A program made the translations under genes and the position numbers. A model generated the notes under the pieces. That model was not told where the DNA came from. It did not search any database and saw nothing but the letters and a program-made list of their open reading frames with translations. A stretch of DNA of 45,651 nt. Source: a virus (lineage: Duplodnaviria > Caudoviricetes). Where the stretch lies: IMG/VR virus record IMGVR_UViG_3300020183_003709, positions 1-45,651 of that record; one strand, 5' to 3'. Below are positions 1 to 44,688 of this stretch, one piece after another (within the stretch, counting starts at the first letter, position 1; each line of letters begins with the position of its first letter).

Positions 1-557
1 TCGAAGTTCCTAAGGTAATTTCTGTAAGATACAGATGCAAATGGATCCGCAGTACCCGAACAATAAATCATTTCAATTGAATCCGAAAATGTTTCTTCCA
101 TTTCTTCAATTGTAGTGTTTATTCTTTTAATTGACGATGAATTAGCAACAATCATATCTACCCTACAGGAAGGACATTTATAGTTACAAGTTCTGTCAAA
201 AGACATTTGTAAAATTGTTGGTCCATAATCAATCTTTGTTTTTTTCTCGAGTACGTTATCTTTTATATAATCAGGTAAATCTTGAATTCTTTTTATTGGT
301 CCAAAAATATCCATATTATAGTTCAAAAGTTGTGATAAAAATGGACATTGTTTTTTATCACAAAACCTATAAGATCCGTCCATAACAGACTCCCTTATTT
401 CCATAGCCTCAGTACTATTCCATAATTCTTTTAATGGTACGTTTCTTGGTAGTTCCTTTTTTAACCAACTCGCACAACACATAAAGTTTCGAGTTTCATG
501 TATTTCTAATGCTTGAAATGGAACAGTACAAACGTAGTCTTTCAAATCTATAATCAT
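1..557 (-). CDS. Radical SAM protein with N-terminal SPASM/twitch-like Cys domain (truncated by window edge; absent from ORF track)
   Basis: Hand translation from ATG at 557 (ATGA overlap with upstream stop): MIIDLKDYVCTVPFQALEIH...MCCASW...ELWNS...IRESVMDGSYRFCDKKQCP...FDRTCNYKCPSCR (CxxxCxxC)...IYCSGTADPFAS; open to position 1. Confidence 0.88.
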   Translation of the reverse strand, partial: MIIDLKDYVCTVPFQALEIHETRNFMCCASWLKKELPRNVPLKELWNSTEAMEIRESVMDGSYRFCDKKQCPFLSQLLNYNMDIFGPIKRIQDLPDYIKDNVLEKKTKIDYGPTILQMSFDRTCNYKCPSCRVDMIVANSSSIKRINTTIEEMEETFSDSIEMIYCSGTADPFASVSYRNYLRNF

Positions 558-1207
558 ATTAATCCGCTAATTTTTTGATTTATTCTAACCTTTTTATATG
601 GTGAGTTAATCCATTCATCAATACATGTTTGATTGTGTGATATTTTTAAATACTCTAATAACTTGTCTAATGTTGGTCTATCTTTTCTAATAAATAGATT
701 TTCATATGTAACCAAAGGATAACCCCTTTTTGACATATTTTTTAAAAATTCTGACTCATTCTCTAAGTGTTGGGATATCCCAAAAATTTCCTCTTCGTCC
801 TCTTTTTTCAAATCATAAAATTTTTGTTTATGCCAAAGTGGGGATATGGTTCTATTTTTTGATAATTTTAAATGATAGAATAGACTTTCAGCTTGTTTTC
901 TTTTGTCTTCTCTCTCTAATATTATAATTTTATCAAAATACGAATACACCCACACTAAATAATCTTCAAAACATTCAAATGATTCGTATGGGTAATTATC
1001 CCTATCTATAAAGGTTTTGACTAAAACATCATTCGTATTAATAAATTCTTCTATAGTTTTAGGTTTACTCTCTTTATCAATATTGAGGTAATTAAATGGT
1101 TCAAAAAAAAGTTTATGGTTCTTTTTTTCTTTTGTTAATAAACAATTAATGAGATAAAATAAGGATGTTGATCCACTCCTACCATTGCAAAAAATCACAA
1201 TTCTCAT
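554..1207 (-). CDS. Sulfotransferase-like protein (P-loop, Stf0-like)
   Basis: N-terminal PSB-loop-like GRSGST, FEPF, IILERED..QAES, VTYENL. Confidence 0.65.
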   Translation of the reverse strand: MRIVIFCNGRSGSTSLFYLINCLLTKEKKNHKLFFEPFNYLNIDKESKPKTIEEFINTNDVLVKTFIDRDNYPYESFECFEDYLVWVYSYFDKIIILEREDKRKQAESLFYHLKLSKNRTISPLWHKQKFYDLKKEDEEEIFGISQHLENESEFLKNMSKRGYPLVTYENLFIRKDRPTLDKLLEYLKISHNQTCIDEWINSPYKKVRINQKISGLI

Positions 1208-1749
1208 AATAATTTTTTATTGGTGTCTGATTTATAATATTTAAAATCAGTATTAGTTATCCAAATATTAAGAGCACATCTGATACCTTCATTAACCGGC
1301 ATTACACCATGATAAATTTTACTACCATCAAATGAAATACATTCACCAATTTCTAATTTATACTTTTCACATTCCTTAATATTTTTTGGTTTTTCTGAAA
1401 GTACAAATCTCCCATCAGAAAAGTTTTTTGATAATACTATGACCGTTGTTAATTGAGAAGTCGAATCTAAATGTAGGTCTAACCACCTTCCGTCGTAATA
1501 TTTGGTAAGGCTTATGTTAGAGTCTTTAATATGAAAATTGTTTAAATCAAACCATAATTTAAACTCTCCTGAAATGTATTTTTCTTTTAATTTACTTATG
1601 ATTTTTTCTTTAAATTCGTCAACATAAACTCTCTTACAATCCCATGTTTCGGATGAATGATATGAGAATTGTGTTCCATTTTCTTCACAAAATTTAATTA
1701 TATCATCACATTCCGACTCATCAAAAAATTTATTTACTGAAAAATTCAT
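1204..1749 (-). CDS. 2OG-Fe(II) oxygenase (prolyl-4-hydroxylase-like)
   Basis: HLD...HGVMPV..G.R facial triad and 2OG-binding Arg. Confidence 0.85.
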   Translation of the reverse strand: MNFSVNKFFDESECDDIIKFCEENGTQFSYHSSETWDCKRVYVDEFKEKIISKLKEKYISGEFKLWFDLNNFHIKDSNISLTKYYDGRWLDLHLDSTSQLTTVIVLSKNFSDGRFVLSEKPKNIKECEKYKLEIGECISFDGSKIYHGVMPVNEGIRCALNIWITNTDFKYYKSDTNKKLL

Positions 1750-2582
1750 ATTATTCGTTTATTTATGTCTTTAGTAATATAATTTAATATATTTTTCTCT
1801 AAAATCCAATGGTATAATTCTTTTGCAATTAATTGATAACCAAATTTATTTGGATGTTTTCCACCATAATGATTATCATCCCATAATTTTTTGTCTTCCC
1901 ATACCTCTTTTTTATTTGTTTCACATAAATGGTCTTTAAATGTTTTATTTGAAAAATTCCAATAATGATTTTTATTAATGTAATCGGTTTTATCTATTTC
2001 TTTCAAAATATTCTTCTTTATCATAGTATCAAATGCATCACAAAAAACATATCTAACACCAATTCTATCGAACATAAACTGAAGATACAGAATATAATTT
2101 TGATTTATAATATTATAATACTGATCAGAAAAGAGATTTTCTAAAAAGAATTCTTTGTAATCTTTTTTTAGATTTATATTTATGTGTGAGTCAGTATTAT
2201 TTAATTTGGTTGTATTTACGATGAATTGGTAAACGTGTTTTTTATTTAAGTATCTTTCCCCCCAAAAATGCCAAGGATTATCATCAGGAAAAAATGGTAA
2301 AGAATCTCTTAGAGATGAAGACCACATAATAACAACTAAATCATTTTTAGAAAAAGTTTGATTATGTATTGAATGGGAAACCACATCAAATATTGTTTTA
2401 TTTGATGATGCGCCCATTCCGAAATTACAAAACTCTATTTCCAATAAATCAGATAGATACTTCGGCCAACAAAAATTTTGTCTAATTTTAGTTCTCTCCT
2501 CAGGTGTGTTTGTTTTTCCCTCTTCAATTAAGTCACCGCCAACACCTTCAGTCCAACTATCTCCAAATGTAAACAACTTCAT
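1746..2582 (-). CDS. SGNH/GDSL hydrolase-like protein
   Basis: FGDSWTEG block I, NFGMGASSN, C-terminal HPN..GYQLIA. Confidence 0.7.
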   Translation of the reverse strand: MKLFTFGDSWTEGVGGDLIEEGKTNTPEERTKIRQNFCWPKYLSDLLEIEFCNFGMGASSNKTIFDVVSHSIHNQTFSKNDLVVIMWSSSLRDSLPFFPDDNPWHFWGERYLNKKHVYQFIVNTTKLNNTDSHININLKKDYKEFFLENLFSDQYYNIINQNYILYLQFMFDRIGVRYVFCDAFDTMIKKNILKEIDKTDYINKNHYWNFSNKTFKDHLCETNKKEVWEDKKLWDDNHYGGKHPNKFGYQLIAKELYHWILEKNILNYITKDINKRII

Positions 2583-2588
2583 AATTCA

Positions 2589-2729
2589 TTATGAAAGATG
2601 TTTTTCCTTTACCTTGTTAATAAAACTTTGAAATGCGTTAGAAACCTTTACCTTTAACTCATTTGATAAAGGTACGATAGTCGGTTTAATTGTTTGAATT
2701 GGTCTTTCTACTTTTACGTTGTTTGCCAT
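2589..2729 (-). CDS. 46-aa hypothetical peptide (below ORF-track cutoff)
   Basis: ATG at 2729 to TAA at 2589: MANNVKVERPIQTIKPTIVPLSNELKVKVSNAFQSFINKVKEKHLS; fills the gap between two co-oriented genes. Confidence 0.7.
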   Translation of the reverse strand: MANNVKVERPIQTIKPTIVPLSNELKVKVSNAFQSFINKVKEKHLS

Positions 2730-2751
2730 TACTACTTATTTTTAATATTTT

Positions 2752-4242
2752 TTATAATTTTGGTGATGGTTGACATCCTCCACAGGTGTTATCATAACAA
2801 TAGTTTCCACAGAATGACCAAGGACACCAACAACCGTTGTGCATAACAGTAAAATCACCATCACCAATATCAACTAAAAATAAATCTGATGGTTCAAAAT
2901 CTAATCCGTAAATGGTCATATTTGCATGTTCCATTTGTAAATTGGTTATTTCTAATGTTGTGAGTTCTTGTGTGTTTGAATCGGTGATTACTAATTTATC
3001 ACCAACATACATTTGGTTTAATTTTTCAAACTTTGTTGATAATGAACCTGATTCCTCTATATAGTACGTACATGACGGCGAATCAACCCAAGATTTACCG
3101 TCGGCGGTTGTTACTCTAATATAAATCGTATCAATTGATGCGGATGTAATTGTTTGTAAAGATGATGAAACTTGAGTAAGTGTTTGATTACTTTTTGATA
3201 AAGTACTGTCCCAACCTAATACGTCCATTTTACCCTCTTCAAAATTTGCGGCATGATTATCGTTAAAATCAATAAAGTCTATCGATCTTATATAGTCACC
3301 AATTTGAATTGTATTTACATCTTTTAATGAACCGGTATAATCTAAAATCACAGAGTCTTCATCGGTATGATAATTATTTACCGGATGTTTTTCTTTAATA
3401 CCCACCTCTTTTGTTATAAATCTATGTCTACTTTTTCTATTTAATATTGTAGTTCCCTCGATAAATTCATTATTAAAGAAATTAACAGGTACAACAGTGG
3501 ATTGTTTATATCCACCAAGATTTATTACATCTAGATTTGAACCATATACAATGTCGATACCTCTTATTATTGCATATTTTCCGTCCACCAAATTATCATT
3601 TGAAAAAATAAATTCTTGTATCAAATAATCCTCTGGTAAATTTGTTTTTAAATCATTTAACTGAGATGAATTCGATAAAACATGTATTTCAGGGTATAGA
3701 GATAAATCGTAATTTGGTATTCTTGATTTTATAATTGCATTAGGATTTTGAGACTGGTAGTCAACGTTAGTTAAAGTGTCTACGTTTCCGTTAGATGAGA
3801 CAAAATATGTATTTGGGACGTATGTACTTCCACTCATTAATGAAAAAAATCCAAATTTATCTGCACAGTAAGTATCATCAATAAGTGCGGTCGTATCATA
3901 TGACTGTCTCAAAATAAACTTGTTGGGGGCATCTTCAATAAACGGTACTGTAACAGAATTAATAGGAACAGGATATTCATTGAACGATATGTTGTTTTCC
4001 ACACATTTTTCTTGTAATTTTTGTTTAAAAACAAACGGACCATTTATTGGTGTATATGACTCTAGTTCGTTATAAATAAAATGAAATTCTGTTATGTTTA
4101 AAGAATTTAATGTATTAAATAACACGTCATAATCGAGAAACGACGCCCCGTCAGAATATATCGTTGTATTTGTGTTTGTCTCTAATATCTTAACGTCTCC
4201 GTTAATTTCTAATAAATCGGTACCTAGAATTACACCTCTCAT
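2752..4242 (-). CDS. Circularly permuted ATP-grasp-like domain + Hint (intein-like) domain + C-terminal 27-aa Cys-rich peptide
   Basis: N-terminal GTDLL..ILETN (ATP-grasp D...ExN motif moved to the N-terminus), ADKF..VPNTY, IIKSR, LIQEFI; Hint-like HTDEDSVILDYTGSLKDVNTIQIGDYI ... IRVTTADGKS ... MYVGDKL ... IYGLDFEPSDLFLV ... VMHN; tail GCWCPWSFCGNYCYDNTCGGCQPSPKL. Confidence 0.75.
   Translation of the reverse strand: MRGVILGTDLLEINGDVKILETNTNTTIYSDGASFLDYDVLFNTLNSLNITEFHFIYNELESYTPINGPFVFKQKLQEKCVENNISFNEYPVPINSVTVPFIEDAPNKFILRQSYDTTALIDDTYCADKFGFFSLMSGSTYVPNTYFVSSNGNVDTLTNVDYQSQNPNAIIKSRIPNYDLSLYPEIHVLSNSSQLNDLKTNLPEDYLIQEFIFSNDNLVDGKYAIIRGIDIVYGSNLDVINLGGYKQSTVVPVNFFNNEFIEGTTILNRKSRHRFITKEVGIKEKHPVNNYHTDEDSVILDYTGSLKDVNTIQIGDYIRSIDFIDFNDNHAANFEEGKMDVLGWDSTLSKSNQTLTQVSSSLQTITSASIDTIYIRVTTADGKSWVDSPSCTYYIEESGSLSTKFEKLNQMYVGDKLVITDSNTQELTTLEITNLQMEHANMTIYGLDFEPSDLFLVDIGDGDFTVMHNGCWCPWSFCGNYCYDNTCGGCQPSPKL
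2836..3369 (-). other. Hint auto-processing domain lacking the Cys/Ser-1 nucleophile, ending His-Asn
   Basis: Blocks A, B, F and G recognisable by eye; terminal HN codons at 2841-2836. Confidence 0.75.
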
Positions 4243-4267
4243 TTTTTAATTTAGTTTTACATTAATA

Positions 4268-4296
4268 AATATAACCAAATATAAAAACTTTCTAAA
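4268..4296 (-). promoter_or_regulatory. Putative sigma70-like promoter for the ATP-grasp/Hint gene
   Basis: TTTAGA-N17-TATATT in an 89-bp intergenic gap; overlaps a TATTTAT 7-mer. Confidence 0.4.
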
Positions 4297-4331
4297 TAGT
4301 TTTTTAAATTTTTATATATGTATATATCTAT

Positions 4332-4622
4332 TTAAATTATCGTTTTATTGTTTTTATTCTCCAATTTTTCAATAAATTTTACATCCACTTCCTTCCATTT
4401 TTTTATTGGACATGAATTATAAAATTTTGAGTATACCTTTTTACTTAGTGGACAACCGCATAGTTTGCAAATTTCGGACCATCTATTGTTTTTAAATAGT
4501 TCTTTTCTATGTTCACAACCTTCACAAATATTTAATCTTTTTTGAGCCAATATCTTTTCATCAGTACTTGGATTAATATAAGTAACCCAAGCATCAAATA
4601 TTTCCTTAAAATTAGGTATCAT
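4332..4622 (-). CDS. Small Cys-rich putative metal-binding protein (DUF6171-like)
   Basis: KRLNICEGCEH...CKLCGCPL..K.....CPIKKW. Confidence 0.65.
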   Translation of the reverse strand: MIPNFKEIFDAWVTYINPSTDEKILAQKRLNICEGCEHRKELFKNNRWSEICKLCGCPLSKKVYSKFYNSCPIKKWKEVDVKFIEKLENKNNKTII

Positions 4623-5380
4623 ATTAGTGTTTTTTTATTTTTTGGCAAGTCATAGTAGTCATAAATACTATTATATTTATTTTTAAATTCATCATTTAAC
4701 TCTAAATTAACTTTAATATCTGAACGTGAATTTACGTGTTTTAATATAAATTTTTTACCAGTTATATTTGAAACCCAGTCTTGTAATTTAGAGATTTCAT
4801 CAATATTAAACCATGTTATATTTTCATCATTATTATGCCAAATAGATTTTGGTGTAATTAGTATATTAAATATATTAATAAGATAACATTCGCGATTTAA
4901 TCGAGTTGTCCTTGGTGGTATCCTAACATATTTTTCTATAAAACCATTTTTTATCATATATTCATTTATAACCTTCCACCGTTTATCAATATTTGTTAAA
5001 TCATTGGAATTAAAAAAGAATAATTCATCTATTGATATTTTGGATAACCAATCTGATATATTATCCCACCCGGTTCGTTTGAGGTCAAAAACGACATGCT
5101 TGTATAATGAAAAGAAAGAATCATGCCTATCCCTATTCACTGCAATTACTGGTAAGTGATTTCCAAATTTTTCTTTTAAATCCATAAGTGATTCATGCCC
5201 ATGTGCTATTAAATCCATTATTTTAGATTCGTCTATATTTTTAAAATCAATTGAATCATTGTGTTCATCCCAAATGTTCAAATTTTTAACATCTAATCCA
5301 CTAAGTATACATGAATAATGAAATGAAGTGGAACCACATCTAGGTAAAGAAACATATAAAAATTTATTATCTACTAACAT
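4619..5380 (-). CDS. Sulfotransferase family 2-like protein
   Basis: FLYVSLPRCGSTS PAPS loop, HGH, VNRDRHDSFFSLYK, terminal HVNS. Confidence 0.7.
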   Translation of the reverse strand: MLVDNKFLYVSLPRCGSTSFHYSCILSGLDVKNLNIWDEHNDSIDFKNIDESKIMDLIAHGHESLMDLKEKFGNHLPVIAVNRDRHDSFFSLYKHVVFDLKRTGWDNISDWLSKISIDELFFFNSNDLTNIDKRWKVINEYMIKNGFIEKYVRIPPRTTRLNRECYLINIFNILITPKSIWHNNDENITWFNIDEISKLQDWVSNITGKKFILKHVNSRSDIKVNLELNDEFKNKYNSIYDYYDLPKNKKTLI

Positions 5381-6003
5381 TAAACTAAACTTTTAAATTC
5401 ATTTTTAACCTTGGCCGCGAAATTAAAATTTATAATAAATCTGTCTTCGGATATTGGGTAATTTGCATGATGTGCAAACCTTCCATCAAAAACCAAACAA
5501 CGTCCTTTTTTTGGTGATACTTTAGTTAACAACTCATATGAATTTAAATCAACTTTGTTAAAGTTTCCCCGATATGTTTCTGCGTTATTACCAAATTTAT
5601 TATTATATATATGTGTGTCTCCTGTTGAATCGTTTATATAATAAACCACAGCTATATGTTCAGTAATTCTATCATAGTGTAATAAATCCATTGGGTTATA
5701 TTCATGATTTAGTGGTTCCGTCCAATTTATTTTCCATCTATAATTTTTTACGAATTCCAAATCAAGTTTTTTACTTACTATAATTTGTATATTATCTATT
5801 AAACTTCTTATACTATCGTTTTTACAAGACATCTGAGGATGTACCTTGGCGGGGAAAAGATGAGTTTCTTTTTTTCCACCGTATTCACCGGTTATATTTT
5901 TCAAATCTTCCCACCTTATTGTTTCATCTTTAACATAATTGTAAATTACATCCTGTTCTTCTTTCGATAGTATGTCATCAAATACGTAATAATTGTGTTT
6001 CAT
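5380..6003 (-). CDS. 2OG-Fe(II) oxygenase
   Basis: HYD, YYINDSTGDT, PKKGRCLVFDG..HHA...RFIINFN. Confidence 0.85.
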   Translation of the reverse strand: MKHNYYVFDDILSKEEQDVIYNYVKDETIRWEDLKNITGEYGGKKETHLFPAKVHPQMSCKNDSIRSLIDNIQIIVSKKLDLEFVKNYRWKINWTEPLNHEYNPMDLLHYDRITEHIAVVYYINDSTGDTHIYNNKFGNNAETYRGNFNKVDLNSYELLTKVSPKKGRCLVFDGRFAHHANYPISEDRFIINFNFAAKVKNEFKSLV

Positions 6004-6007
6004 ATTT

Positions 6008-6667
6008 TTAAATAAAACTTTTTTCTTTTTTTATAAATTCAAAACCCACATTACCCGCCATAACTACTCTATCTATAGTTGCTTTTGGTGCATTATTTGG
6101 TGCATGTGGTATCGACCCTGGCATTATTATAAGTTCGTCTTCTTTTGGTCTTATAAAATATTCTTTATCGTTCCAACCTTTTATATATAAAACACCATCT
6201 TCATTTTCCATTACATCTGGCATTTGTATATAATAAACAAAAGTGTAATTTGGATAGAATTTTTTTTGGCTTTGGTTTATTTCAGTATGCGTATGAAATT
6301 TATCAACACCTTTTATTTCTTCATGTTTAAATTGAATTTGTATGGGATTTTTTGACCTTACTATGTTTATCCAAGCATCCGTATTTATTTTATTAAATTC
6401 TTTTTTTACATCATTTTCATAAATTTCTTTACAGGCGTTTATACCTTCTTGATGAATTAAGTCTAAATTATTTTTAATGTCAATTTTACCTATAAAATTA
6501 ATGTTTTGTTTCCACTCCTCTCTGTATCCGTAACCGTCTGTTTTAACGGTATCTTTTTTCGAATCTACTACAATATAAGACTCTCTTAATATTTCACTTT
6601 TTAATTTTACTAAATCCAAAGATTTAATCCAAATATATGTTTTATCATCAAAAAATATTTTTTTCAT
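6008..6667 (-). CDS. Putative 2OG-Fe(II) oxygenase (HxH type)
   Basis: HTH, FVYYIQMP, ELIIMPGSIPH, RVVMAGN. Confidence 0.75.
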   Translation of the reverse strand: MKKIFFDDKTYIWIKSLDLVKLKSEILRESYIVVDSKKDTVKTDGYGYREEWKQNINFIGKIDIKNNLDLIHQEGINACKEIYENDVKKEFNKINTDAWINIVRSKNPIQIQFKHEEIKGVDKFHTHTEINQSQKKFYPNYTFVYYIQMPDVMENEDGVLYIKGWNDKEYFIRPKEDELIIMPGSIPHAPNNAPKATIDRVVMAGNVGFEFIKKEKSFI

Positions 6668-7920
6668 TATATTAAACTTTTTGATATTCCTTTTTTATTT
6701 TTTTTAAATATGGTATTATAATTCTGTACAAAAAATGTCAACTCATTCTCTTTCCAATCATATAGTTCAAATGCACTTATTAAATCGGTATCATTTGTAA
6801 CCGAAATTTTATTTGTTTCATCTAAAATTAATTTTAATTTATTTGGTATCGGTGCGTTATATGCGTCTTTCCAAAATGGTGTGTTCATTCTTTCATTTAA
6901 ATAATGATATCGAATAAACATCATGTTTTGCTCATTTGTTTCTCTACATATTTTATTAAACGTGTCTTTATATGACACATCAAAATTATTATCGATTAAT
7001 CTTTTCAATTGTATAATAGTCGACATAAGTGAAGTTGCCTCCAATGGTTCTAAAAAACCATATGATAAACCAATAGAAATACTATTGCCTATCCAACTTC
7101 TCGTATGTGTTCCTGCTTTAAAATCAAATACCTTTTCTGTTTTTATTTCGTGTCCTAAGTATTCTTCAATTTCTTTTTTAGCGTCTTCAACAGATGTATA
7201 TGAATCGTTAAAAACATAACCACACCCCCAACGATGTTTTAATGGTATTTGAAACATCCAACCCGATTTCATAGCATGCATATAAGTATGTGTGAGGTCT
7301 TTATTTGTCAATTGTTTTGTTTGTGGTAAAAAGTAACCAAGTGCTTTATTGAGTAGTAGATATTTTGAATAATCTATCCATTCCTCTTTATGTACCCCTT
7401 GAATTATTAATCTAGCAAAACCACTACAATCAAATATAAAATCTAAATTAATTACGGTTCCGTCTGTTAATTCGATATTATCTATATTTTCTGACGTATG
7501 ATTTATTTTTTTAACTTGTCCATCTACCCATTTAACCCCCCTATCTATTGCGGTTTTTTTAAAATATTCAGAAACACGTCTGGCATCAAAATGAAACGCG
7601 GAATATTTTCTTATGTCATTTGTTTGTTTATTGATTTGATGAAATAGATGTTCGGATTGACTACCGACATGTGTCCAATTTATCAGTTTAATTCCATCTT
7701 TTGTTGTTGATCCTGTTTTTTTCGTAAAATCTTCAATGTTAATGTCTAATAATTTCAAAAACAAACCAAAATTAGAGGTTCCTCCTTCTCCTGCACCTAA
7801 TATTCCAATTTTAGAACTTTCAACTAGAGTGACATCCACATTTAACCAATATTTTTGTACAGATAATGCCGTTGCCCATCCAGCAGTACCACCACCAATT
7901 ATGATTACTCTTTTATTCAT
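6667..7920 (-). CDS. Flavin-dependent halogenase (tryptophan halogenase family); start corrected to 7920
   Basis: IIGGGTAGW, GAGEG, catalytic-Lys-like TKDGI, FHFDA, DCSGF, GWMFQIPL (WxWxIP variant), FLEPLEATS; ATG 7920 overlaps upstream TGA. Confidence 0.85.
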   Translation of the reverse strand: MNKRVIIIGGGTAGWATALSVQKYWLNVDVTLVESSKIGILGAGEGGTSNFGLFLKLLDINIEDFTKKTGSTTKDGIKLINWTHVGSQSEHLFHQINKQTNDIRKYSAFHFDARRVSEYFKKTAIDRGVKWVDGQVKKINHTSENIDNIELTDGTVINLDFIFDCSGFARLIIQGVHKEEWIDYSKYLLLNKALGYFLPQTKQLTNKDLTHTYMHAMKSGWMFQIPLKHRWGCGYVFNDSYTSVEDAKKEIEEYLGHEIKTEKVFDFKAGTHTRSWIGNSISIGLSYGFLEPLEATSLMSTIIQLKRLIDNNFDVSYKDTFNKICRETNEQNMMFIRYHYLNERMNTPFWKDAYNAPIPNKLKLILDETNKISVTNDTDLISAFELYDWKENELTFFVQNYNTIFKKNKKGISKSLI

Positions 7921-8477
7921 ATTAAAGTGTTTACAAAATTTTCTTTTGGTTCTAATTGAATCCAATTAACTAAAGAATATCTGACCCCTTCGGTCACTGG
8001 TGTTACTCTATGTAATAAATTAGAGTAAAATATAAATAAATTACCAATACCTTTTTGTAATTTTACTATATTTTTCTTCCCACTATCTATGCTTATTTCT
8101 AAACAACCTCCTTCATATTCATCATTCAATTGTAAAACTATTGATACGAATCTATTTTTATAATTATCTGATGAGTCGGTGTGCCAGTTATAAAATTCAC
8201 CAACCTTATATTCTGTAAATTGATACGGTCCTAATCCCGTAACTTTAAAACCTTTAACTTTTATTAGTTCTTCTAATTTAGTTTTAATTTTATCATCTAA
8301 AATTTCAATGTTATCTATAAACCCAACCGAAGACTTTCTTGCAAGTTCAGAGGATACATCAACCCCATCAATAGTTACTTCCGCCTTTTTTAATTTTAAT
8401 TCTAATTTATATTTTTCTAAAATGTAGGAAGATTCTTCAACCGTTAGAAAATTATTAATAATCCAAAATCTGTCCAT
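7917..8477 (-). CDS. 2OG-Fe(II) oxygenase (PKHD/P4H-like)
   Basis: YNWHTD, YEGGCL, HRVTPVTEGVRYSLVNW. Confidence 0.9.
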   Translation of the reverse strand: MDRFWIINNFLTVEESSYILEKYKLELKLKKAEVTIDGVDVSSELARKSSVGFIDNIEILDDKIKTKLEELIKVKGFKVTGLGPYQFTEYKVGEFYNWHTDSSDNYKNRFVSIVLQLNDEYEGGCLEISIDSGKKNIVKLQKGIGNLFIFYSNLLHRVTPVTEGVRYSLVNWIQLEPKENFVNTLI

Positions 8478-9047
8478 TTAAATAAGTGTTTTAGATTTTA
8501 TTGATGTAGGCCACGCATTTATAGAATACCTATTTCCTAATTCTATTACGTCAACAAAGTGGGATATATTAGAATCAAATAAAAAAATACTACCTCTTTT
8601 TTTTGGTAGAGTATTTTCAACTCCATCAATTAAATATTTAACATATCCACCTTCATAATTATCATTTAATTGAAGAATAATTGTAATTGTTGCCCCACCC
8701 ATTATTTCATGTTTATCCTCATGCCAATTTAAAAAATCACCATTAGAATATTTGTTAAAAGAATATTTTAGAACATTTTCATATTTTATAGATTTAAATG
8801 GTGTTGTGTTATTTGAAATATTAATTATTTTATTTGTTAAACTAATAATAAATTCATCCTCTAATGTTTCGTTAATAAAATAACAACCTTTTCTTTTATT
8901 ACCAACATACTCTAAATTTTGATTTATTATTTTTTCATTCAAAAATTTAGAAGACTTCATATCAATGAGATTTTTTGATTCACCTAATTTAATTAGATAA
9001 TCACATTCTTCTTTTGATAAAAATTCCTCTATAAATTTTGTAAACAT
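8478..9047 (-). CDS. 2OG-Fe(II) oxygenase (P4H-like)
   Basis: WHED, LNDNYEGG, HFV....GNRYS. Confidence 0.88.
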   Translation of the reverse strand: MFTKFIEEFLSKEECDYLIKLGESKNLIDMKSSKFLNEKIINQNLEYVGNKRKGCYFINETLEDEFIISLTNKIINISNNTTPFKSIKYENVLKYSFNKYSNGDFLNWHEDKHEIMGGATITIILQLNDNYEGGYVKYLIDGVENTLPKKRGSIFLFDSNISHFVDVIELGNRYSINAWPTSIKSKTLI

Positions 9048-9259
9048 TACATTTTATTTTTTAAACCATACTTAATCCAATTATACCAAACTCTTTCATG
9101 TAAAAAGTATATCAATGGTTTAATTACAAGTTCCCCTAAACCAACCATTCCTGCCCACTTCAATGGTAAACCCGCTGATACGGTTAATATAATTGTTGTT
9201 AATGTTCCAATAAATCTATAACTAATACTTTTAGCTATGTGTCTCTTTACCAGTGGCAT
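9047..9259 (-). CDS. DUF2061-like small membrane protein
   Basis: RHIAKSISYR, two hydrophobic stretches, YFLHERVW. Confidence 0.8.
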   Translation of the reverse strand: MPLVKRHIAKSISYRFIGTLTTIILTVSAGLPLKWAGMVGLGELVIKPLIYFLHERVWYNWIKYGLKNKM

Positions 9260-9596
9260 CTATTTCTCCTTTTCTAATTTTAGTCCCACTTATATCGGCG
9301 ATTTCTTGTGGGGGTTCGTGATAAATTACTTCATATCCAACACCTCTACCATAATTTACAGATTCGATATCGGGTATAATACTCAAGAATATTTTGTCAG
9401 AGTTATCTGTAAAAAATTTAGTGTTTGATAATTCCATTAAAATATCGTGTGCTTTCTTAGGGTTATTTTCGTCTTTAGGAACATCTCTGATTGCCACCCA
9501 AACGTTTTTTCCCTTATCTAATTGTTGGTTTATTAACCATTCATGTCCTTTGTGCCAATTTTGCCACCTTCCGATGTACAATGCATATTTTTTCAT
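9231..9596 (-). CDS. Minimal HIGH-family nucleotidyltransferase (possible ATP sulfurylase surrogate)
   Basis: GRWQNWHKGH (HxGH), YGRGVGY, ISGTKIR; adjacent to APS kinase. Confidence 0.75.
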   Translation of the reverse strand: MKKYALYIGRWQNWHKGHEWLINQQLDKGKNVWVAIRDVPKDENNPKKAHDILMELSNTKFFTDNSDKIFLSIIPDIESVNYGRGVGYEVIYHEPPQEIADISGTKIRKGEIDATGKETHS

Positions 9597-10030
9597 AAAT
9601 CAATAAATTTAATTAAATCGATGAATGACTCGTCATCTCTTTTGTTAGTGGTATCTAAATCAACATAATTTTCAGTCGGGGGTTCGTAATTATCAACGTG
9701 ATATTCTTCCCTTCCTCTTATGTCTTTTGTATGTACATAAATTTCAATTACGTTATTATCTTTTTTAAAACTATCTCTCATGTCTTTGTATGGTGAAACA
9801 AGTGATACCACAACTGAATATCCCTTTTCACTCATAAAACGAGCAATGTCTTGAGCTCTTTCTATATTCCTTCTTCTACCTGTTTCAGAATAATCTTTAT
9901 TGTTGAAGATTTTACGTAAATCATCTCCATCAATATGGATAACTCTCTCGGTATTACTCAAATAAGATTTTAAATGTTTTGCTATGGTCGTTTTCCCCGA
10001 TGCGGGTTGACCTGTAAACCAGTATATCAT
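9593..10030 (-). CDS. cysC: Adenylyl-sulfate (APS) kinase
   Basis: WFTGQPASGKTT, IDGDDLR, YSETGRRRNI, VSPY, YEPP. Confidence 0.92.
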   Translation of the reverse strand: MIYWFTGQPASGKTTIAKHLKSYLSNTERVIHIDGDDLRKIFNNKDYSETGRRRNIERAQDIARFMSEKGYSVVVSLVSPYKDMRDSFKKDNNVIEIYVHTKDIRGREEYHVDNYEPPTENYVDLDTTNKRDDESFIDLIKFIDL

Positions 10031-15460: not shown

Positions 15461-15994
15461 TTAAGTGGTACTATACAATTGTGGATATTCCGCAATTAGA
15501 TGTATACCTCCATTATTTATTGCATTCTCATACGTGGCTCTAATATCTTTCACTTCCAATAATTCATGTATCTGTATGTTGGGACACATAGTTTTAAATT
15601 GATTGATGTAATTACCCTTATGTTGATGTCCGGGGTCTAATGGTACGTCTGATCCTTTACCTACCCTTATAATCATATTTGGTAACCACTTATTATTACT
15701 CATCAGTTTTATTTTATCAACATGATTTACAAGTTGATTCGTTGCACAAATTAGGAAATCCCATCTTGGGTAGAAGGTTACCACATGATATCCATTCATA
15801 GACATACCCAAAGACATACCCATTTGTGTGTCTTCCATAACCGGTACTTCTATTAATTTTTCTTTAGGTACACCATCAAGTGTAGAACTCATAGGATTAC
15901 CAGGAAACAGGATTTGCTGACCAATAAAAATTGTTTTATCAATTTGACCAATCTTAGTCATCATTTGTGTTAATTCTTCTTTATAACTTGTCAT
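15461..15994 (-). CDS. ThDP-dependent E1-beta/transketolase pyrimidine-binding subunit (short)
   Basis: FIGQ, EVPVMEDTQMGMSLGMS, DFL..ATNQLVN, GHQH. Confidence 0.8.
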   Translation of the reverse strand: MTSYKEELTQMMTKIGQIDKTIFIGQQILFPGNPMSSTLDGVPKEKLIEVPVMEDTQMGMSLGMSMNGYHVVTFYPRWDFLICATNQLVNHVDKIKLMSNNKWLPNMIIRVGKGSDVPLDPGHQHKGNYINQFKTMCPNIQIHELLEVKDIRATYENAINNGGIHLIAEYPQLYSTT

Positions 15995-17184
15995 ATTAAA
16001 CTTTTAAAAAAATTATAATCTTTTTTATCGTTTACGATATTTTTTATTCTTTTCATATTCGATTCAAATCTTTTCTTATTTTCTGAGAAATATTTTTTAA
16101 AGTCAATTTGTTTAAGTTTTTTGACTTGCTCAAAATATAAAAATAACCTTTCTCTATTGTCTTTTTCTTTATCAAATGAATAATCGATAATATCCTCAAA
16201 CATATCTAATTGATATTTTTCTTTGAATCTTTCATTATGACCACAACTACCTAATATTAATCCTATTTGAGAATAATAAAATGGAATTAAAGATTTTTCT
16301 GTTATATGAATTACTTTCTCACTATGATAACTTGTTTCGGTAACTAAATTTACATACGAATGTTTATATGGATTCATTTCATAAGATTTATAAAAATCAA
16401 TAAAATACGGAGGCTCGTCTATTTTGTAATCGGTTTCATTTATACTATTTTTAATACCATAATTTACCAAATAATCAATATGTTCTTTATATTTTTTTAT
16501 ATCATCTTTATCTAATACATCTAAGAATAAGATATAAGAATATGAACCATCTAAATTGATGTATCTTTCTTTTATTTCATTACCTCTAAGTAGTGACCAA
16601 TCAATTTCATCTAAAATACCTTCATTCCTTAATAATACCAATAAAGCAAGTCTGTGACATTTATTCATTCTATTAAAACACATAAAAGTATTTTTTCTAT
16701 TTTCTTCAAAATTATACTTAAATGTGTTCATACCTTCCACCGCAACCAATGGTAATCTATTTGATGTGTGTACCTTTATTTTACTATTTGATTCTGACAC
16801 CAACCCATCAATAATTTCATTTCCATTTATTAAAATAATTTGTTCGGTATTTAAATTTTCATTTTTTGATTGCTCTTCTAAACAAATTATCACTCTATCA
16901 TTATCAGATTCATGTTCAGACAAAAAAACCGAAAAAACATTTTTATGTTTTCTCATAAGGTTTTTTGTCTTATGTGGTATTGGTAACGATTTATAATTTA
17001 AAAAATAAGGTTCAATATAAAAACCGGTTACAAGAATTGAATAATATTTTTCAGACTCATTTATTACAATATCATTGATATCAATAAACTCGATTTCCTC
17101 AATCTTGTAACCATACATCGTATTTACAATTAAGTCTTTATTACCCTCAACAGAACTATCGTATAAAACATTAAATTTTCTCAT
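15991..17184 (-). CDS. Putative GT-B glycosyltransferase of the [TS]EK[TS] family (paralog 1)
   Basis: FMCFNR...HR, YVNLVTET, HITEKSLIPF, IDYSFD. Confidence 0.55.
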   Translation of the reverse strand: MRKFNVLYDSSVEGNKDLIVNTMYGYKIEEIEFIDINDIVINESEKYYSILVTGFYIEPYFLNYKSLPIPHKTKNLMRKHKNVFSVFLSEHESDNDRVIICLEEQSKNENLNTEQIILINGNEIIDGLVSESNSKIKVHTSNRLPLVAVEGMNTFKYNFEENRKNTFMCFNRMNKCHRLALLVLLRNEGILDEIDWSLLRGNEIKERYINLDGSYSYILFLDVLDKDDIKKYKEHIDYLVNYGIKNSINETDYKIDEPPYFIDFYKSYEMNPYKHSYVNLVTETSYHSEKVIHITEKSLIPFYYSQIGLILGSCGHNERFKEKYQLDMFEDIIDYSFDKEKDNRERLFLYFEQVKKLKQIDFKKYFSENKKRFESNMKRIKNIVNDKKDYNFFKSLI

Positions 17185-28329: not shown

Positions 28330-30501
28330 TTAAATCAATTTTCTATTTAATGAATTATATATTTCGAATATTTTTAATTGTACCTCTTTTAAACCATTAC
28401 CAACTTCACCATCGAATGTATATTTATCACGTTGCATTTCTATAAATCTATATCTATTGTGTTCACATATTTTTTTCATCTCTTCTCTAATTTGAATGAG
28501 TTCTTCAACCGTCTTATTTTTAATTGACTCAATTATATTGACTATTATTTCGACTTTTTCTTCTAAACTTTCGGATACATCATATGATTCATCAAACCAA
28601 TTATCAAATGTCTTAAACCCATTTTCTTTTAAAAATTTTAAAGTACCAGTATTACCAAGAATAATGAATGGGTGTCCAAGTGCTATGGGCTTCCATGTCT
28701 TTTCAGAAATAAATAATGTATTTTTATCTACTAATGTCTCTGTGACTATCGATACAAAAGTTTCCTCATAATCATTTAATGTTAAATCATTTGCCCAATT
28801 TATTTCTAATGATTTATCAATTATTATTGGAGTAAAATTATTTAAGTTAGATGCTAAATCATACCAAGTTTCATTAATAAATCTTTTTTCATCAAATTTT
28901 TGACAACTGACTTTACCGTATTCTAATAGATTATTTTGACACAATCTTGAAAGTAATAAAACTCTGTGTCTTCTTGGGTTTCTGTTATATGTTAAAAAAT
29001 GAAATTTATCTTTTTTAGGTTTAAATTCTATAGTGTTATAATATTTAACATCAATGTAATTTAACCAAAAATCGAATGATGATATTCCGTGACATTTGAA
29101 TTTTAAATTTTTGATTTTTCTAATTTCGTCAATAAGTAAATTACCTGAAAAATAGTGCACATTGCTATGTGGTAAATTAGATTGTTCTATCCATTTATTT
29201 ATAATTTCTAAATCATAATTATTATCAATTCCGCTATATCCCTCCATAATATTCATCATAATAATTGCGGATTTATATTTTCTAATGTCGTTCATATATT
29301 GTTCAGAAATACATTTAAATCCGACTTCTAAATTGTTAACGAAAAAAGAAGGATCATAAATATTTATAAAATAAATGTGATCATTGTCTCCTAATTTTTC
29401 TTTAGTTAAAAGCTCTACACAATCCTGATAAAAAGACGGCGTAACTAACTCTTTGAAAACACTTTGATTAAATAATTTATTATTTTTTTCGGTATTGAAA
29501 ACATTCCAATTACCCCACATTTTTGGTATAGTCATTGTACCCGTTTCCTCTAAGTACCATGTTCTTGATGACCCATTTGGTCTATGATAGTTTATTATAC
29601 TATCCCAATCTTCCAAACTGAATATCAATTTTTTACTGAAATATAAATTGAAAATACCATGTGAATATTTTATAGATATAAAATTCATTGGTAATAATTT
29701 TTTTAAAAGACTAAAATCAACAACATATGATCTACTATCTTTTGTTTCGTAGTATGATACTTTAAGTTTTTTATTTAATGATTTTTCAATTTTACTTATT
29801 AGTTCTTTTTTTGTTATGTTTAATTCATTAAAACCAACATTTATTATTTTATTATCAAAATCAAATGACATAACATATAAAAATAATTCAATACAATCAC
29901 TTATATGTAAGTGAGGTCTACTTGCATTTGAATCAAAAATTTCAATTTTTTTATTATTTCTATAACAATCAACTAAATTATTAATTAGAATATCATTTCT
30001 TAAAATATCTCCTTCTCCATATAATGTCGATAATCTAAGAATGACATAATTTAAATTTTCATATTTTGATATTAAATTCTCTGATTCTATTTTTAGTTTT
30101 GAATATAAACCTGTGACCATAACAGGTGAAGTTTCGTTTACATAATTTTGTGTTACTCCGTAAACACTGCAACTACTAGTAAAATAAAAATGTGTATTAT
30201 CCCTCACTAAATCTAAAACGCCCTTTAAATTTTTTAATTCTACCTCAATTTGTTTTTCATCTACAATTTCATCTAATCTTGGTGAGATTAAGTAAATAAT
30301 TTTATCAACGTCTTCAAATAAGTCTCTGTGAACATTAATATTTGCAATATCATCTTCTATGATTTTATCAACAAATTCAACTTTTAATGGATCATTAAAT
30401 TTAAATGAATCATATATTGTGATATTATTATCATTATCTTTTAATTTTTTACATAATTTAGTACCTATGTAACCAGCCCCACCGAATATTATAATTTTCA
30501 T
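28330..30501 (-). CDS. Fusion: N-terminal NAD-dependent epimerase/dehydratase + C-terminal [TS]EK[TS]-family GT-B-like domain
   Basis: N: FGGAGYIG, SSCSVYG, YSKLK, RPHLHI, DSRSY; C: FLTYNR...HR, VSIVTET, ISEKTWKPI..GHPF, FDESYD. Confidence 0.75.
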   Translation of the reverse strand: MKIIIFGGAGYIGTKLCKKLKDNDNNITIYDSFKFNDPLKVEFVDKIIEDDIANINVHRDLFEDVDKIIYLISPRLDEIVDEKQIEVELKNLKGVLDLVRDNTHFYFTSSCSVYGVTQNYVNETSPVMVTGLYSKLKIESENLISKYENLNYVILRLSTLYGEGDILRNDILINNLVDCYRNNKKIEIFDSNASRPHLHISDCIELFLYVMSFDFDNKIINVGFNELNITKKELISKIEKSLNKKLKVSYYETKDSRSYVVDFSLLKKLLPMNFISIKYSHGIFNLYFSKKLIFSLEDWDSIINYHRPNGSSRTWYLEETGTMTIPKMWGNWNVFNTEKNNKLFNQSVFKELVTPSFYQDCVELLTKEKLGDNDHIYFINIYDPSFFVNNLEVGFKCISEQYMNDIRKYKSAIIMMNIMEGYSGIDNNYDLEIINKWIEQSNLPHSNVHYFSGNLLIDEIRKIKNLKFKCHGISSFDFWLNYIDVKYYNTIEFKPKKDKFHFLTYNRNPRRHRVLLLSRLCQNNLLEYGKVSCQKFDEKRFINETWYDLASNLNNFTPIIIDKSLEINWANDLTLNDYEETFVSIVTETLVDKNTLFISEKTWKPIALGHPFIILGNTGTLKFLKENGFKTFDNWFDESYDVSESLEEKVEIIVNIIESIKNKTVEELIQIREEMKKICEHNRYRFIEMQRDKYTFDGEVGNGLKEVQLKIFEIYNSLNRKLI

Positions 30502-30502
30502 A

Positions 30503-31513
30503 TTAGTCTCTTAATAATTCAGTTGTGACACAATGAAAAGAACCACCAAGCGTTCTTGAATGTCTAATTTTACAATCCAATGTTTCTATTTTATATTTTT
30601 TTAATTCTTTGATTAATTCAATTTGTCTATTGTCAACAATTACGGTCTTATCATCTATAGACAAGAGATTAACCCCAATCCAAATCGATGCTCGAATTGT
30701 TTTATGATATCCAATATCTACCATTGGAGGGCACCATATTTTATCCCATGATTTAAGAAATTTGGGTATGTTATTTTCATTTACTCTTTCTGGATTTAAT
30801 AAACACAAACCCTCTCTTAGTAGTGCAATTGTTGAATCAATATGTATGTAAGAATAAACATTCTCTATGGTATGAACTTTATATTCATTACCTAATAAAT
30901 TTTGTAACCATTTAGCGCCTTTCAAATTTCCTGTGTTAGATACTAAATATAAAATGTCATTATTACATCTTAATATATTTGCAGCATCAAAAACAGGTTC
31001 ATTATTATTTAAAGTAATCTTTGATAAATCATCTCGTTGATACATTGAATTTAGTAATCTTGGTTTTGGTGCTGCAACCCAAGTAAAACCCTCTTCCATT
31101 TTTTCTATAAAAATATCTTTAAAACAATCTGTTTCAAATTGTCTTGATCGTAATGACATAGGTGATTCAATTATTTTATTACCAATTACGGTCACCGTAT
31201 CACGAGGACAAAAAGTATAATATTGGGTGGTCTCCCAATACCCATTTGAAATCACTTTTTGAGTATCAATTTGCGTTGGTCTATAGACTTTTACTCCAAT
31301 ATTTTTTAAAATATTTGTCAGATTTTCTAAATCTTCATAAGTCTCATCATAAACATTTTTATCCCAAAACCCCAATTCGTCATGTGGTATTTGATTATCG
31401 GTAGCATAATTAATACAGTGTAAATCTTTACCGTGTGTGGGCATATTAGCGTTTTCAACAGATCCAACAATTACCTCTCTAAGTCTACCCCATTCGTTGT
31501 TAACTGATACCAT
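30503..31513 (-). CDS. Amidinotransferase (glycine / inosamine-phosphate amidinotransferase family)
   Basis: NEWGRLREVIVG, CPRD, FDAAN, HIDST, terminal GGSFHCVT. Confidence 0.92.
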   Translation of the reverse strand: MVSVNNEWGRLREVIVGSVENANMPTHGKDLHCINYATDNQIPHDELGFWDKNVYDETYEDLENLTNILKNIGVKVYRPTQIDTQKVISNGYWETTQYYTFCPRDTVTVIGNKIIESPMSLRSRQFETDCFKDIFIEKMEEGFTWVAAPKPRLLNSMYQRDDLSKITLNNNEPVFDAANILRCNNDILYLVSNTGNLKGAKWLQNLLGNEYKVHTIENVYSYIHIDSTIALLREGLCLLNPERVNENNIPKFLKSWDKIWCPPMVDIGYHKTIRASIWIGVNLLSIDDKTVIVDNRQIELIKELKKYKIETLDCKIRHSRTLGGSFHCVTTELLRD

Positions 31514-35694: not shown

Positions 35695-36435
35695 TTATAA
35701 AACGAAATTTATTGGGACTTTTTCTAAGAAGTTTAGATTTCTTGATTCATCATAAATAATACCCAAGTTGTTTATGGTTTTGAAATCATAATAACATAAA
35801 ATGTCATCATAACATTTTTTTAATGGTAATAGATGAATTTCATTAGAAATGAGGTAATCTTCTATTAATTGTATATTAGTATTATTTATTATAATAGAAA
35901 ATAATTTTACATCAACCTCACCAAAATATCTATGTTTTTCAGAAACGCATTCAGGGCTAGAACAACCGATATATAAACTATTTTCAATATAATCTTCAAT
36001 TAGATTCCCATTAAATACAATTCTATTGTTTTCGATAAAGTTTTTATACAATATCATTTCATTTTTATCTCTAACAATCGTGATTGTTATTGATTTTTCT
36101 ATTTCATTTTCATCTGTATCTAAAATAGGTAAAAAATAAAATTTGTCACCTTCTTGTTCATCGGTCCAAAATTCATAAGCCAATGTTTTAGTTGAGTCAT
36201 TATACGATAATCCCAAGTTTTTGCCAGGTTTACCAAAGACCATAGATATTTCATCTTTTTTATAAATTTTCTTAATATTGAATGTAATTGTAATTGCATA
36301 TTCTGATTTTAATAAAAAATTTTTCAAATAAATATTCTCACTCTTATCAAAATTTGTTACATATTGATTATCATGATGTTCATCAATGTCCCAAGAAAAT
36401 TTAACCCAATATGGTTCTTTATATTTTATTTTCAT
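35695..36435 (-). CDS. Stand-alone LamG/concanavalin-like domain protein
   Basis: LYIGC, YFGEVD, YYDF..IYDES; paralogous to the N-terminus of 36432..38531. Confidence 0.55.
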   Translation of the reverse strand: MKIKYKEPYWVKFSWDIDEHHDNQYVTNFDKSENIYLKNFLLKSEYAITITFNIKKIYKKDEISMVFGKPGKNLGLSYNDSTKTLAYEFWTDEQEGDKFYFLPILDTDENEIEKSITITIVRDKNEMILYKNFIENNRIVFNGNLIEDYIENSLYIGCSSPECVSEKHRYFGEVDVKLFSIIINNTNIQLIEDYLISNEIHLLPLKKCYDDILCYYDFKTINNLGIIYDESRNLNFLEKVPINFVL

Positions 36436-38531: not shown

Positions 38532-39955
38532 ATCATCTTTGTATTAATGAACATGGTGTTCGGATATTTATTTTCATCAATTTCTAACACATTTGTTACG
38601 TCCAAAATTTTATTAAAACCCTCTTCTTTGTAATTTATTTTTTTTTGTTGCATTTCTGTAACGAATCTTTTTTCATTTTTTGCGGTCGTTTCCCCCTTTA
38701 CCCATTGTCCATTTACATAACCTTCATCAGCATGAAACAAACAATCAAATACACCTTCTCTTCGATGAGGTAATATGTTTTCAATTATATGAATATCTTC
38801 TTGTGTGTATTCAACATCATGACTATCACAACCTAAATTTTTAATTAATTCAGTTTGTCCTTTAGTAAATTCATAATGTAATTTCAAATTTACATTTTCG
38901 TTTTCATCGAAAATACAATCGACATTTTCAAAAAATTTATTATAAATTTTAATCTCAGAAATTTGTCCTTTGAAATAAACTTTTTGATTATTACAGAAAC
39001 CAAACAAAAATACTTTCAGAGGATCATGTTTTTTTAAATCACCATCAATATGAAACGGTGCATTAGCTTTTATATCATTTAAATTCGTAATCAATTCGTC
39101 GTTAATAAAAAGATATTGTTTTTTTGTATTCATATTATATGACATAGTAACCCAAGTCCAAAGTTTTTCAAACCTTTTTGCCCAATTGTAATAACAAACG
39201 TTGTTATTATCATAGCAAACAGATGTTACTGATCTCGAGTTATTAAAAGATAAACCCCATGTCCAAGAACCATCTTTTCTTATTAGTGGGTATTCAATAA
39301 ATCTTCTATTTTTATCTCCAACAAGCCATATAGGAACTTTATTTTGTTGTTGCTCCGCCTTAAACAAAATAGAAATTGTGTGGTCTTCATTTAATGATTT
39401 ACTAATTTCTCTATCAGTTTCTGATGCAAAAACTGAACTATTACCATTAAAATTAGCAACTACTCTGTTTTTATAACTTTTATAAATTTTACCAGATGTA
39501 TATCCTTCATAATAACATCTCCAAAACAAGTCGTCATCTTCTTGTCCCCAATCCCAATAGTCGTTTGAATAACCGTTTGTATTTTCAACTTGTTCTTTTG
39601 TAAAAAGCACCACTCCCCCAAAATATTGATCGTAACCTAATCCATAATTATATTTTGATAACATGGTTGCGATATGTATAGGATTTTTTTTCGGATAAGA
39701 ATAATCACAAGAATTATCGTGTGGTATCATATCGACATCGTGCCATGCAATATAATCACATCCATCATGAAACGCATAATAAGCCGAAATATTTTTCATT
39801 GCACCCCTATTAAATAACTTATCGTCGACTTGATGGCCCACGTAAAATTTATGTGGAATACATTTTTCGTTTAAATAGTTTGTTAACTTTGGTATTAGTT
39901 CTTCTATGTGTTCCTTTCTATTCCGATATGGTATGCAAATCCCTAATTTTTTCAT
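38528..39955 (-). CDS. GT7 (beta-1,4-galactosyltransferase-like) with inserted LamG-like domain
   Basis: IPYRNR, FNRG, HDVD, YFGGV, NGYSNDYWDWGQEDDD; insert FNGNSS...FKGQISEIKIYN. Confidence 0.85.
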   Translation of the reverse strand: MKKLGICIPYRNRKEHIEELIPKLTNYLNEKCIPHKFYVGHQVDDKLFNRGAMKNISAYYAFHDGCDYIAWHDVDMIPHDNSCDYSYPKKNPIHIATMLSKYNYGLGYDQYFGGVVLFTKEQVENTNGYSNDYWDWGQEDDDLFWRCYYEGYTSGKIYKSYKNRVVANFNGNSSVFASETDREISKSLNEDHTISILFKAEQQQNKVPIWLVGDKNRRFIEYPLIRKDGSWTWGLSFNNSRSVTSVCYDNNNVCYYNWAKRFEKLWTWVTMSYNMNTKKQYLFINDELITNLNDIKANAPFHIDGDLKKHDPLKVFLFGFCNNQKVYFKGQISEIKIYNKFFENVDCIFDENENVNLKLHYEFTKGQTELIKNLGCDSHDVEYTQEDIHIIENILPHRREGVFDCLFHADEGYVNGQWVKGETTAKNEKRFVTEMQQKKINYKEEGFNKILDVTNVLEIDENKYPNTMFINTKMI

Positions 39956-44605: not shown

Positions 44606-44688
44606 TATTATAAACTAGTTTTTATATAAATACTTATGTTTTCAGTTTTATTTTGATAATATATCTGAAATTAATTTATAAATGAATA

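Follow-up and report, generated by a model that had tools for sequence, protein, structure and literature searches.

A ligase, a Hint domain and a lysine-bearing peptide in one gene of large aquatic phages: a candidate protein-conjugation system

Introduction

Several described systems contain the parts that are combined in the phage gene analysed here. YgiC/YjfC and glutathionylspermidine (Gsp) synthetase share with it the circularly permuted ATP-grasp amide ligase fold, and YgiC is described in the searchable text of two papers (PMC11762307, PMC12568646) as a peptide-spermidine ligase, which joins a peptide carboxylate to an alkylamine; the NCBI label for YgiC is the same. Type A BIL domains have in common with it a Hint fold with a C-terminal His-Asn, and graspetides (microviridin, plesiocin) the pairing of an ATP-grasp enzyme with a ribosomal Lys peptide. 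In pretoxin-Hint polymorphic toxins a Hint domain stands before a variable C-terminal part, and S74 chaperones process phage tail proteins. Pup- and ubiquitin-type conjugation and the LysW carriers use ATP to join the C-terminal carboxylate of a protein to an amine through an amide bond.

PMC7824862 reports R2K ligases from jumbo phages and, from a cyanophage, a cluster of halogenase and oxygenase genes; the ligase-Hint gene is absent from its searchable text. The words intein, Hint and phage do not occur in the main text of PMC8939145. A full-text literature search returned no paper on a ligase-Hint-peptide architecture or on the tag described below, with the qualification that supplements and subscription papers (e.g. 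Iyer et al. 2009, on ATP-grasp amidoligases) may bear on novelty. The parts are known, and the ligase-Hint-peptide-tag system is apparently undescribed in searchable papers. Here we analyse the gene in a 45,651-nucleotide stretch of a Caudoviricetes record (IMGVR_UViG_3300020183_003709; the window), for which a preliminary description had been drawn up from the DNA letters alone.

Results

One open reading frame encodes a ligase, a Hint domain and a short tail

The gene, its parts and a motif in front of it are listed below; all are on the minus strand.

4242-2752, minus: ligase-Hint-peptide gene, ORF of 496 aa
3400..4242, minus: circularly permuted ATP-grasp ligase domain, aa 1-281 (confident structure model)
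2836..3369, minus: Hint domain, aa 292-469, predicted to cut only after Asn469 (confident structure model)
2752..2835, minus: 27-aa tail, aa 470-496, with six Cys and a single Lys, K495 (codon 2760-2758), then the stop (ORF translation)
4265..4272, minus: ATATTTAT motif, candidate late promoter, 23-30 nt upstream of the gene start

The 496-aa ORF has no match in Pfam, NCBIfam, PHROGs or the PDB sequences. Confident models place the ATP-grasp fold at aa 1-281 and the Hint fold at aa 292-469, in agreement with the preliminary description, which had put these domains (~1-285 and ~292-469) in one ORF that runs from the Hint into a Cys-rich tail and a stop, exactly as the translation has it. That anatomy stands, and to it we add the circular permutation, an invariant Lys, a tag on neighbouring proteins, a DUF6171-like gene and a 46-aa ORF.

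The family comprises 592 proteins at E ≤0.001 (120 of them listed) and 264 representatives at 50% identity (150 listed). Our working set of 367 distinct full-length homologues was drawn from the listed matches and from fetched loci, with 14 sister-clade proteins in addition. The contigs that carry homologues are viral or metagenomic and reach 334 kb, and the window's own stretch is also present in lake and freshwater metagenomes. No homologue was found in the GenBank phage records searched, and the prokaryote genomes searched gave one match, an incomplete gene at one end of a 5-kb contig from an archaeal MAG (L183) that is probably a mis-binned phage piece. Each of four searched phage records of 251-316 kb holds one full copy. 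The 289-kb genome G004 has terminal repeats and T4-like major head, portal, terminase and tail sheath proteins; the carriers of the gene are large uncultured aquatic phages. One homologue (L037:1324-2784) is broken into ORFs of 310 and 88 aa, apparently through a frameshift or an assembly error.

Upstream of G004 genes AGGA/GGAG is rare (62/377) and A-rich sequence lies near -3 and at -11 to -13, which is the Bacteroidota pattern. From this G004 pattern only, we infer a likely Bacteroidota host. The motif TA[TC]TTAT lies 5' of 140 of 155 gene homologues, as against 11.6 in shuffles, and ATATTTAT precedes 33/361 G004 genes (4.6 in shuffles), several of which are virion genes, tail fibre genes included. 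Expression late in infection is likely; the codon bias of the gene is average (rank 101/200 in G004).

The ligase domain is circularly permuted

The folds nearest to the ligase model are YgiC and Gsp synthetase. Its permuted topology is evident from full-length structural alignment to 7uka, 2io7 and 3kaj, whereas RimK and GshB align only from residue 49-51. Seven residues are near-invariant (D9, E21, N23, R112, D122, K172 and R227), and the metal-binding Asp, the E-x-N motif and the ATP-binding Lys are kept (D9 and K172 in 364/367 each, E21 and N23 in 366/367 each). The Arg of the R-x-D motif is absent, being Gly7 here and Gly in 64% of representatives. This Arg (R139) is required in Cp1B, a member of the same ligase group, according to the searchable text of PMC12568646; in the phage protein R227 may stand in for it.

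The Hint domain is predicted to release the tail

The Hint model is closest to BIL domains. Its C-terminal His-Asn is kept (His 358/367, Asn 364/367) to the same degree as the catalytic residues of the ligase, despite drift in the remainder of the active site. Position 1 is His in 243/367 and Ser in 24/367, with Cys outside the six commonest residues; block B10 is C/S/A/T, F4 is S/T/N/A/G/E, and the assisting His at F13 is replaced by Asp. A Hint domain without N-terminal catalytic residues is expected to make only the C-terminal cut, and since the first Hint lacks both Cys/Ser1 and the block B His, no thioester should form. The residue after the Hint (+1) is Gly here and takes 19 forms across 359 homologues, Pro among them (51/359). 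Inteins of classes 1-3 have a conserved Cys/Ser/Thr at +1, a block B His and an Asp or Cys at F4 (searchable text of PMC4031507). A +1 position open to any of 19 residues, and F4 and block B residues other than these, do not fit a splicing intein of these classes.

Beyond the tail, 33/367 homologues carry an S74 chaperone and 40/367 carry one to three further Hints. Pfam PF13884 (S74) matched in 3 of 40 homologues scanned, and Ser-Asp...Lys stands behind some tails. Cleavage after Asn469 is very probable, and the release of the tail by the Hint domain, which the preliminary description had claimed and which is predicted here too, is well supported by the conserved His-Asn and the domains on the far side. 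The His-Asn is missing in 8/367 homologues.

The tail keeps a lysine and an even number of cysteines

In 280 of the 367 homologues the tail ends at a stop (one of these is a mis-parsed S74 form), in 33 at S74 and in 40 at more Hints; six have long tails and eight lack His-Asn, and these last two groups are excluded from the Lys count. Lys is present in all 313 stop- or S74-ended tails, and exactly one in 253/280 stop tails. Across 67 tails taken from 50%-identity representatives, no Lys-less tail was observed where 16.7 were expected (0/5000 shuffles), and the frequencies of Arg, His, Gln and Asn in the same tails equal expectation. Where a Cys-rich tail precedes a second Hint (n = 12), none contains Lys and in 12/12 a Lys directly follows that Hint; across the multi-Hint homologues, Lys follows a later Hint in 35/40. 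As +1 Lys is usual after other phage Hints (31/50 sites, a set that includes sister-clade ligases), its presence after second Hints cannot count as separate evidence. A 419-aa virion-region protein of G004 (L192:10853-12112) has a Hint that keeps Cys1 and ends in His-Asn-Lys.

The tail is variable and Cys-rich, as the preliminary description had envisaged: in a set of 38 close homologues, identity is 41% at the non-Cys positions of the tail and 63-64% in ligase and Hint, and Cys counts are even in 72/72 distinct spacing patterns, ranging from 4 to 14. The even counts indicate disulfides, of which the freed 27-mer probably has three. No family match was found for the window tail, which has one Asp and one Lys. 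Asp and Glu are absent from 98/280 stop-ended tails, in which side-chain lactams of the graspetide type are therefore impossible; like the fused precursor and the permuted ligase, this does not fit a graspetide RiPP. As the +1 residue is variable, Pro included, the alpha-amine is disfavoured as an acceptor, and the Lys side chain is on balance the better candidate for the amine.

Neighbouring proteins share a C-terminal tag

The genes around the ligase gene are as follows.

1..557, minus: radical SAM protein with Twitch domain, cut by the window edge (NF033640, E 1.2e-8); family tagged in 20/21 full copies
554-1207, minus: sulfotransferase-like, C-terminus SGLI, downstream
1204-1749, minus: 2OG oxygenase, C-terminus KKLL, downstream
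1746-2582, minus: SGNH hydrolase, C-terminus KRII, downstream
2589..2729, minus: 46-aa basic, amphipathic ORF, directly after the ligase gene
4332..4622, minus: DUF6171-like six-Cys protein, 96 aa, C-terminus KTII (Pfam E 0.03, Atlas neighbours)
4619-5380, minus: sulfotransferase-like, C-terminus KTLI, upstream
5380-6003, minus: 2OG oxygenase, C-terminus KSLV, upstream
6008-6667, minus: 2OG oxygenase, C-terminus KSFI, upstream
6667-7920, minus: Trp halogenase, C-terminus KSLI, upstream
7917-8477, minus: 2OG oxygenase, C-terminus NTLI, upstream
8478-9047, minus: 2OG oxygenase, C-terminus KTLI, upstream

Across 841 proteins of the tagged families the C-terminal consensus is K-[TS]-[LI]-[IL]. Two large hydrophobic C-terminal residues end 9/10 of the other genes of ≥60 aa in 554-9047, compared with 5/39 elsewhere in the window; in G004 the same feature is found in 9/11 genes near the ligase and 24/366 elsewhere. 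Over 128 distinct loci it marks ~80% of genes within four positions of the ligase gene and 10-20% beyond eight. The tag does not require a stop-start overlap, being present in 410/427 overlapping genes and 113/121 with gaps >40 nt (control families 7/240); as the tagged families were chosen for tag richness, the informative comparison is the one across distances to the next gene. Its codons and stops are varied. Among genes within four positions of the ligase, 668/850 are tagged in Cys-type loci, 58/127 in Cys-less loci and 1/84 in the sister clade. All seven ligase residues are kept in 97/98 loci with >45% tagged neighbours, and in some loci an intact ligase has hardly any tagged genes around it, or none (L211 and L213 0/8, L102 1/8, L098 1/7). 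A 291-aa ligase homologue without Hint or tail (P0142) is tagged at its own C-terminus (SKLI).

An ORF of 25-70 aa follows the gene in 121/122 Cys-type loci, in 17/17 Cys-less loci (one looks unrelated) and in 1/14 sister loci (unrelated), and ends in His plus one to three residues in 121/139. The similarity of the 46-aa ORF to the GshB/YgiC helix is not significant; it is possibly a split-off helix that completes the ligase as a second chain, or an adaptor. The DUF6171-like gene lies ≤900 nt from the ligase gene in 90/101 Cys-type, 0/17 Cys-less and 0/7 sister loci. It tracks the Cys tail yet stays conserved while the tails vary, and its product may help the Cys peptide to fold or may bind it. 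A DUF6171-like Cys pattern recurs in shorter proteins without the tag that are encoded away from the ligase gene (L185:11728-11988 in G004; L208, L212, L250).

Adjoining the island at 9047-10030 are untagged DUF2061, cytidylyltransferase-like and APS kinase genes, a possible source of activated sulfate for the sulfotransferase-like genes. The stretch 10063-43889 contains about 35 sugar-nucleotide, glycosyltransferase, carbamoyltransferase and radical SAM genes, and most of the nucleotide-sugar enzymes there have no tag-like ends. Tag-like ends far from the ligase are found at 15991-17184 (KSLI), 28330-30501 (RKLI), 36432-38531 (IKLL) and 38528-39955 (TKMI). A 336-aa ORF at 30503-31513, with no Pfam match at E 0.02, presumably resembles an amidinotransferase, to judge by its motif. 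The end of a tail fibre gene (PHROG tail matches) and a 77-aa ORF lie at 44372-45366, preceding the enzyme region, which may therefore serve virion or surface decoration.

The enzyme families persist without the cysteine peptide

The preliminary description had proposed that the flanking enzymes tailor the Cys peptide, with co-occurrence of the two as the expected pattern. Enzyme families are indeed shared in most loci, but they also persist in 17 Cys-less loci, which retain 2OG, sulfotransferase, SGNH, radical SAM, methyltransferase and halogenase families beside a tail that frequently amounts to a stretch of one to eight residues with Lys at its end, set between tandem Hints. Tailoring of the Cys peptide is accordingly not supported as a general rule. 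A SET-domain family (Pfam E 2e-4, one member), mostly tagged, adjoins Cys-less tandem-Hint genes and is the first or second gene after the ligase in L204, L205, L206, L207, L210 and L214. The halogenase is absent in 4/4 Trp-less tails and also in the Trp-containing S74 clade; its presence follows clade, not Trp content.

The sister clade (L219-L243, 14 loci) has an N-terminally extended, partly degenerate ligase and two to four Hints. D9, E21, N23 and K172 are kept and R112, D122 and R227 are lost; the neighbours are 2OG oxygenases, four or five paralogous copies after the ligase gene, and a sulfotransferase-like gene, all untagged. The clade is very divergent and represents one evolutionary event. 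What stays constant in the family is an intact ligase, the predicted C-terminal cut and Lys; a Cys scaffold can be missing, and the enzymes do not rely on it.

Discussion

The proposed pathway and its alternatives

What has been observed here is the two folds, their conserved residues, a Lys that never varies, Cys numbers that are always even, the C-terminal tag and the way the genes co-occur. We tentatively propose that the ligase links the Lys, once freed, to the carboxylate at a C-terminus, probably that of the K-[TS]-L-I tag. One chain would comprise the permuted ATP-grasp domain, the Hint and the Lys-bearing tail; the Hint would cut after Asn469, the freed 27-mer would form three disulfides as it folds, after which the ligase would link the only Lys of this peptide to an activated carboxylate donated by the K-[TS]-L-I tail of neighbouring proteins. 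Because the nearest folds, YgiC and Gsp synthetase, join a peptide C-terminal carboxylate to an alkylamine, with YgiC described as a peptide-spermidine ligase in the searchable text cited above, the Lys side chain is proposed as acceptor and the tag carboxylate as donor; given a Lys acceptor, the tag is in turn somewhat the likelier source of the carboxylate. The same proposal is favoured by the Lys found in every stop- or S74-ended tail while other polar residues stay at expectation, by its shift behind the second Hint in 12/12 Cys tails, by a tag that is independent of gene overlap and written in varied codons, and by loss of the tag in the sister clade, which lacks R112, D122 and R227 though its oxygenases remain. 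Against it, this co-loss comes from one clade and a single divergent event, tagged genes are scarce or missing around some intact ligases, the R-x-D Arg is Gly7 and the F13 His is Asp, each precursor of average codon bias yields one peptide for ~10 tagged proteins, the Hint-less P0142 is itself tagged, and eight homologues lack His-Asn and six have long tails. In its fullest and more speculative form, a reverse-ubiquitin-like phage system, a polyprotein would give a ligase and a Lys-bearing disulfide miniprotein, the 46-aa helix would complete the enzyme, and any K-[TS]-L-I protein would be joined by an isopeptide bond.

Close to conjugation in likelihood, and likewise tentative, is a scaffolded RiPP-like pathway in which the tag is a non-covalent docking signal that lets interchangeable enzymes plug onto the ligase-Hint protein, modifying the tail or a group added to Lys by the ligase (a small acid, a sugar acid or a virion-protein carboxylate) before the Hint releases the product. 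The tailored-RiPP reading of the preliminary description is one of two readings of similar likelihood. It draws on the same folds, Lys rule and tag data; Trp, Tyr and Pro abound in the tails, with halogenase, sulfotransferase-like and hydroxylase genes alongside, a SET-domain gene adjoins several Cys-less genes, tagged P0142 fits a recruited enzyme, and intact ligases without tagged neighbours keep a role. Less easily accommodated are the five or more oxygenases that persist where the tail is one to few residues, a halogenase that follows clade and not Trp content, and the loss of the tag together with conserved ligase residues.

Release of an effector in the style of polymorphic toxins is unlikely. 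Here the Hint would free a disulfide-rich inhibitor or ligand, the DUF6171-like protein would serve it as chaperone or as immunity partner, and the ligase and the tag would belong to a separate process, the tag for example as a degron for a host protease; nonpolar C-termini do resemble protease degrons. A Hint in front of a variable C-terminus, the even Cys counts and a DUF6171-like gene that tracks the Cys tail (90/101 vs 0/17) all suit this explanation, which leaves unaccounted for the invariant Lys, the ligase fusion kept in all clades and a tag confined to the gene's neighbourhood (9/11 vs 24/366 in G004).

Similarly unlikely is self-contained macrocyclisation, the reading implied by the preliminary description, whereby the ligase would close the freed peptide head-to-tail, or from Lys to its own C-terminus or to Asp/Glu, and the neighbours would tailor it. 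The precise freeing of both peptide ends in S74 and second-Hint forms and the single Asp and Lys of the window tail are compatible with closure, but 98/280 tails lack Asp or Glu, both end residues vary freely with Lys frequently in the final or penultimate position, some tails have only one to five residues, and the enzymes remain where there is no Cys peptide. Least probable is an uncut protein acting as a covalent or non-covalent hub with the tail as its attached Lys-bearing arm, which the replaced F4 Asp and F13 His and the eight homologues without His-Asn would allow, but which sits poorly with a His-Asn as conserved as the ligase catalytic residues despite drift elsewhere in the Hint active site and with S74 and second Hints that add a far-side cut.

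A ligase that reads the four-residue tail would represent a new phage protein-conjugation pathway and offer a minimal tag-plus-ligase tool; a tail that acts as a docking signal would invert RiPP logic, the label lying on the enzymes rather than on the precursor. Either outcome would test why large aquatic phages hold clusters of 2OG oxygenases, sulfotransferases and halogenases. The family also amounts to a naturally occurring collection of 72 or more distinct even-Cys peptide scaffolds, predicted to be self-releasing.

Comparison with known systems

Relative to YgiC, the phage ligase begins at the strand matching YgiC residue 94 and lacks the N-terminal region; it differs from both YgiC and Gsp synthetase in having Gly for the R-x-D Arg, in its fusion to a Hint and a likely amine partner, and in its occurrence almost only in phage contigs. 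Type A BIL domains have an N-terminal Cys/Ser nucleophile with block B Thr/His, which is missing here, where an ATP-dependent ligase takes the activated-flank position. In contrast to the graspetides, the phage tail is fused behind ligase and Hint instead of forming a separate leader precursor, and the ligase is permuted. Unlike in the pretoxin-Hint toxins, the part freed from the phage protein would be a small peptide with an even number of Cys, or just a few residues, and an enzyme forms the N-terminal part. Compared with Pup, ubiquitin and LysW, the conjugation proposed here would be the reverse arrangement, in which many proteins share the C-terminus and one peptide gives the Lys.
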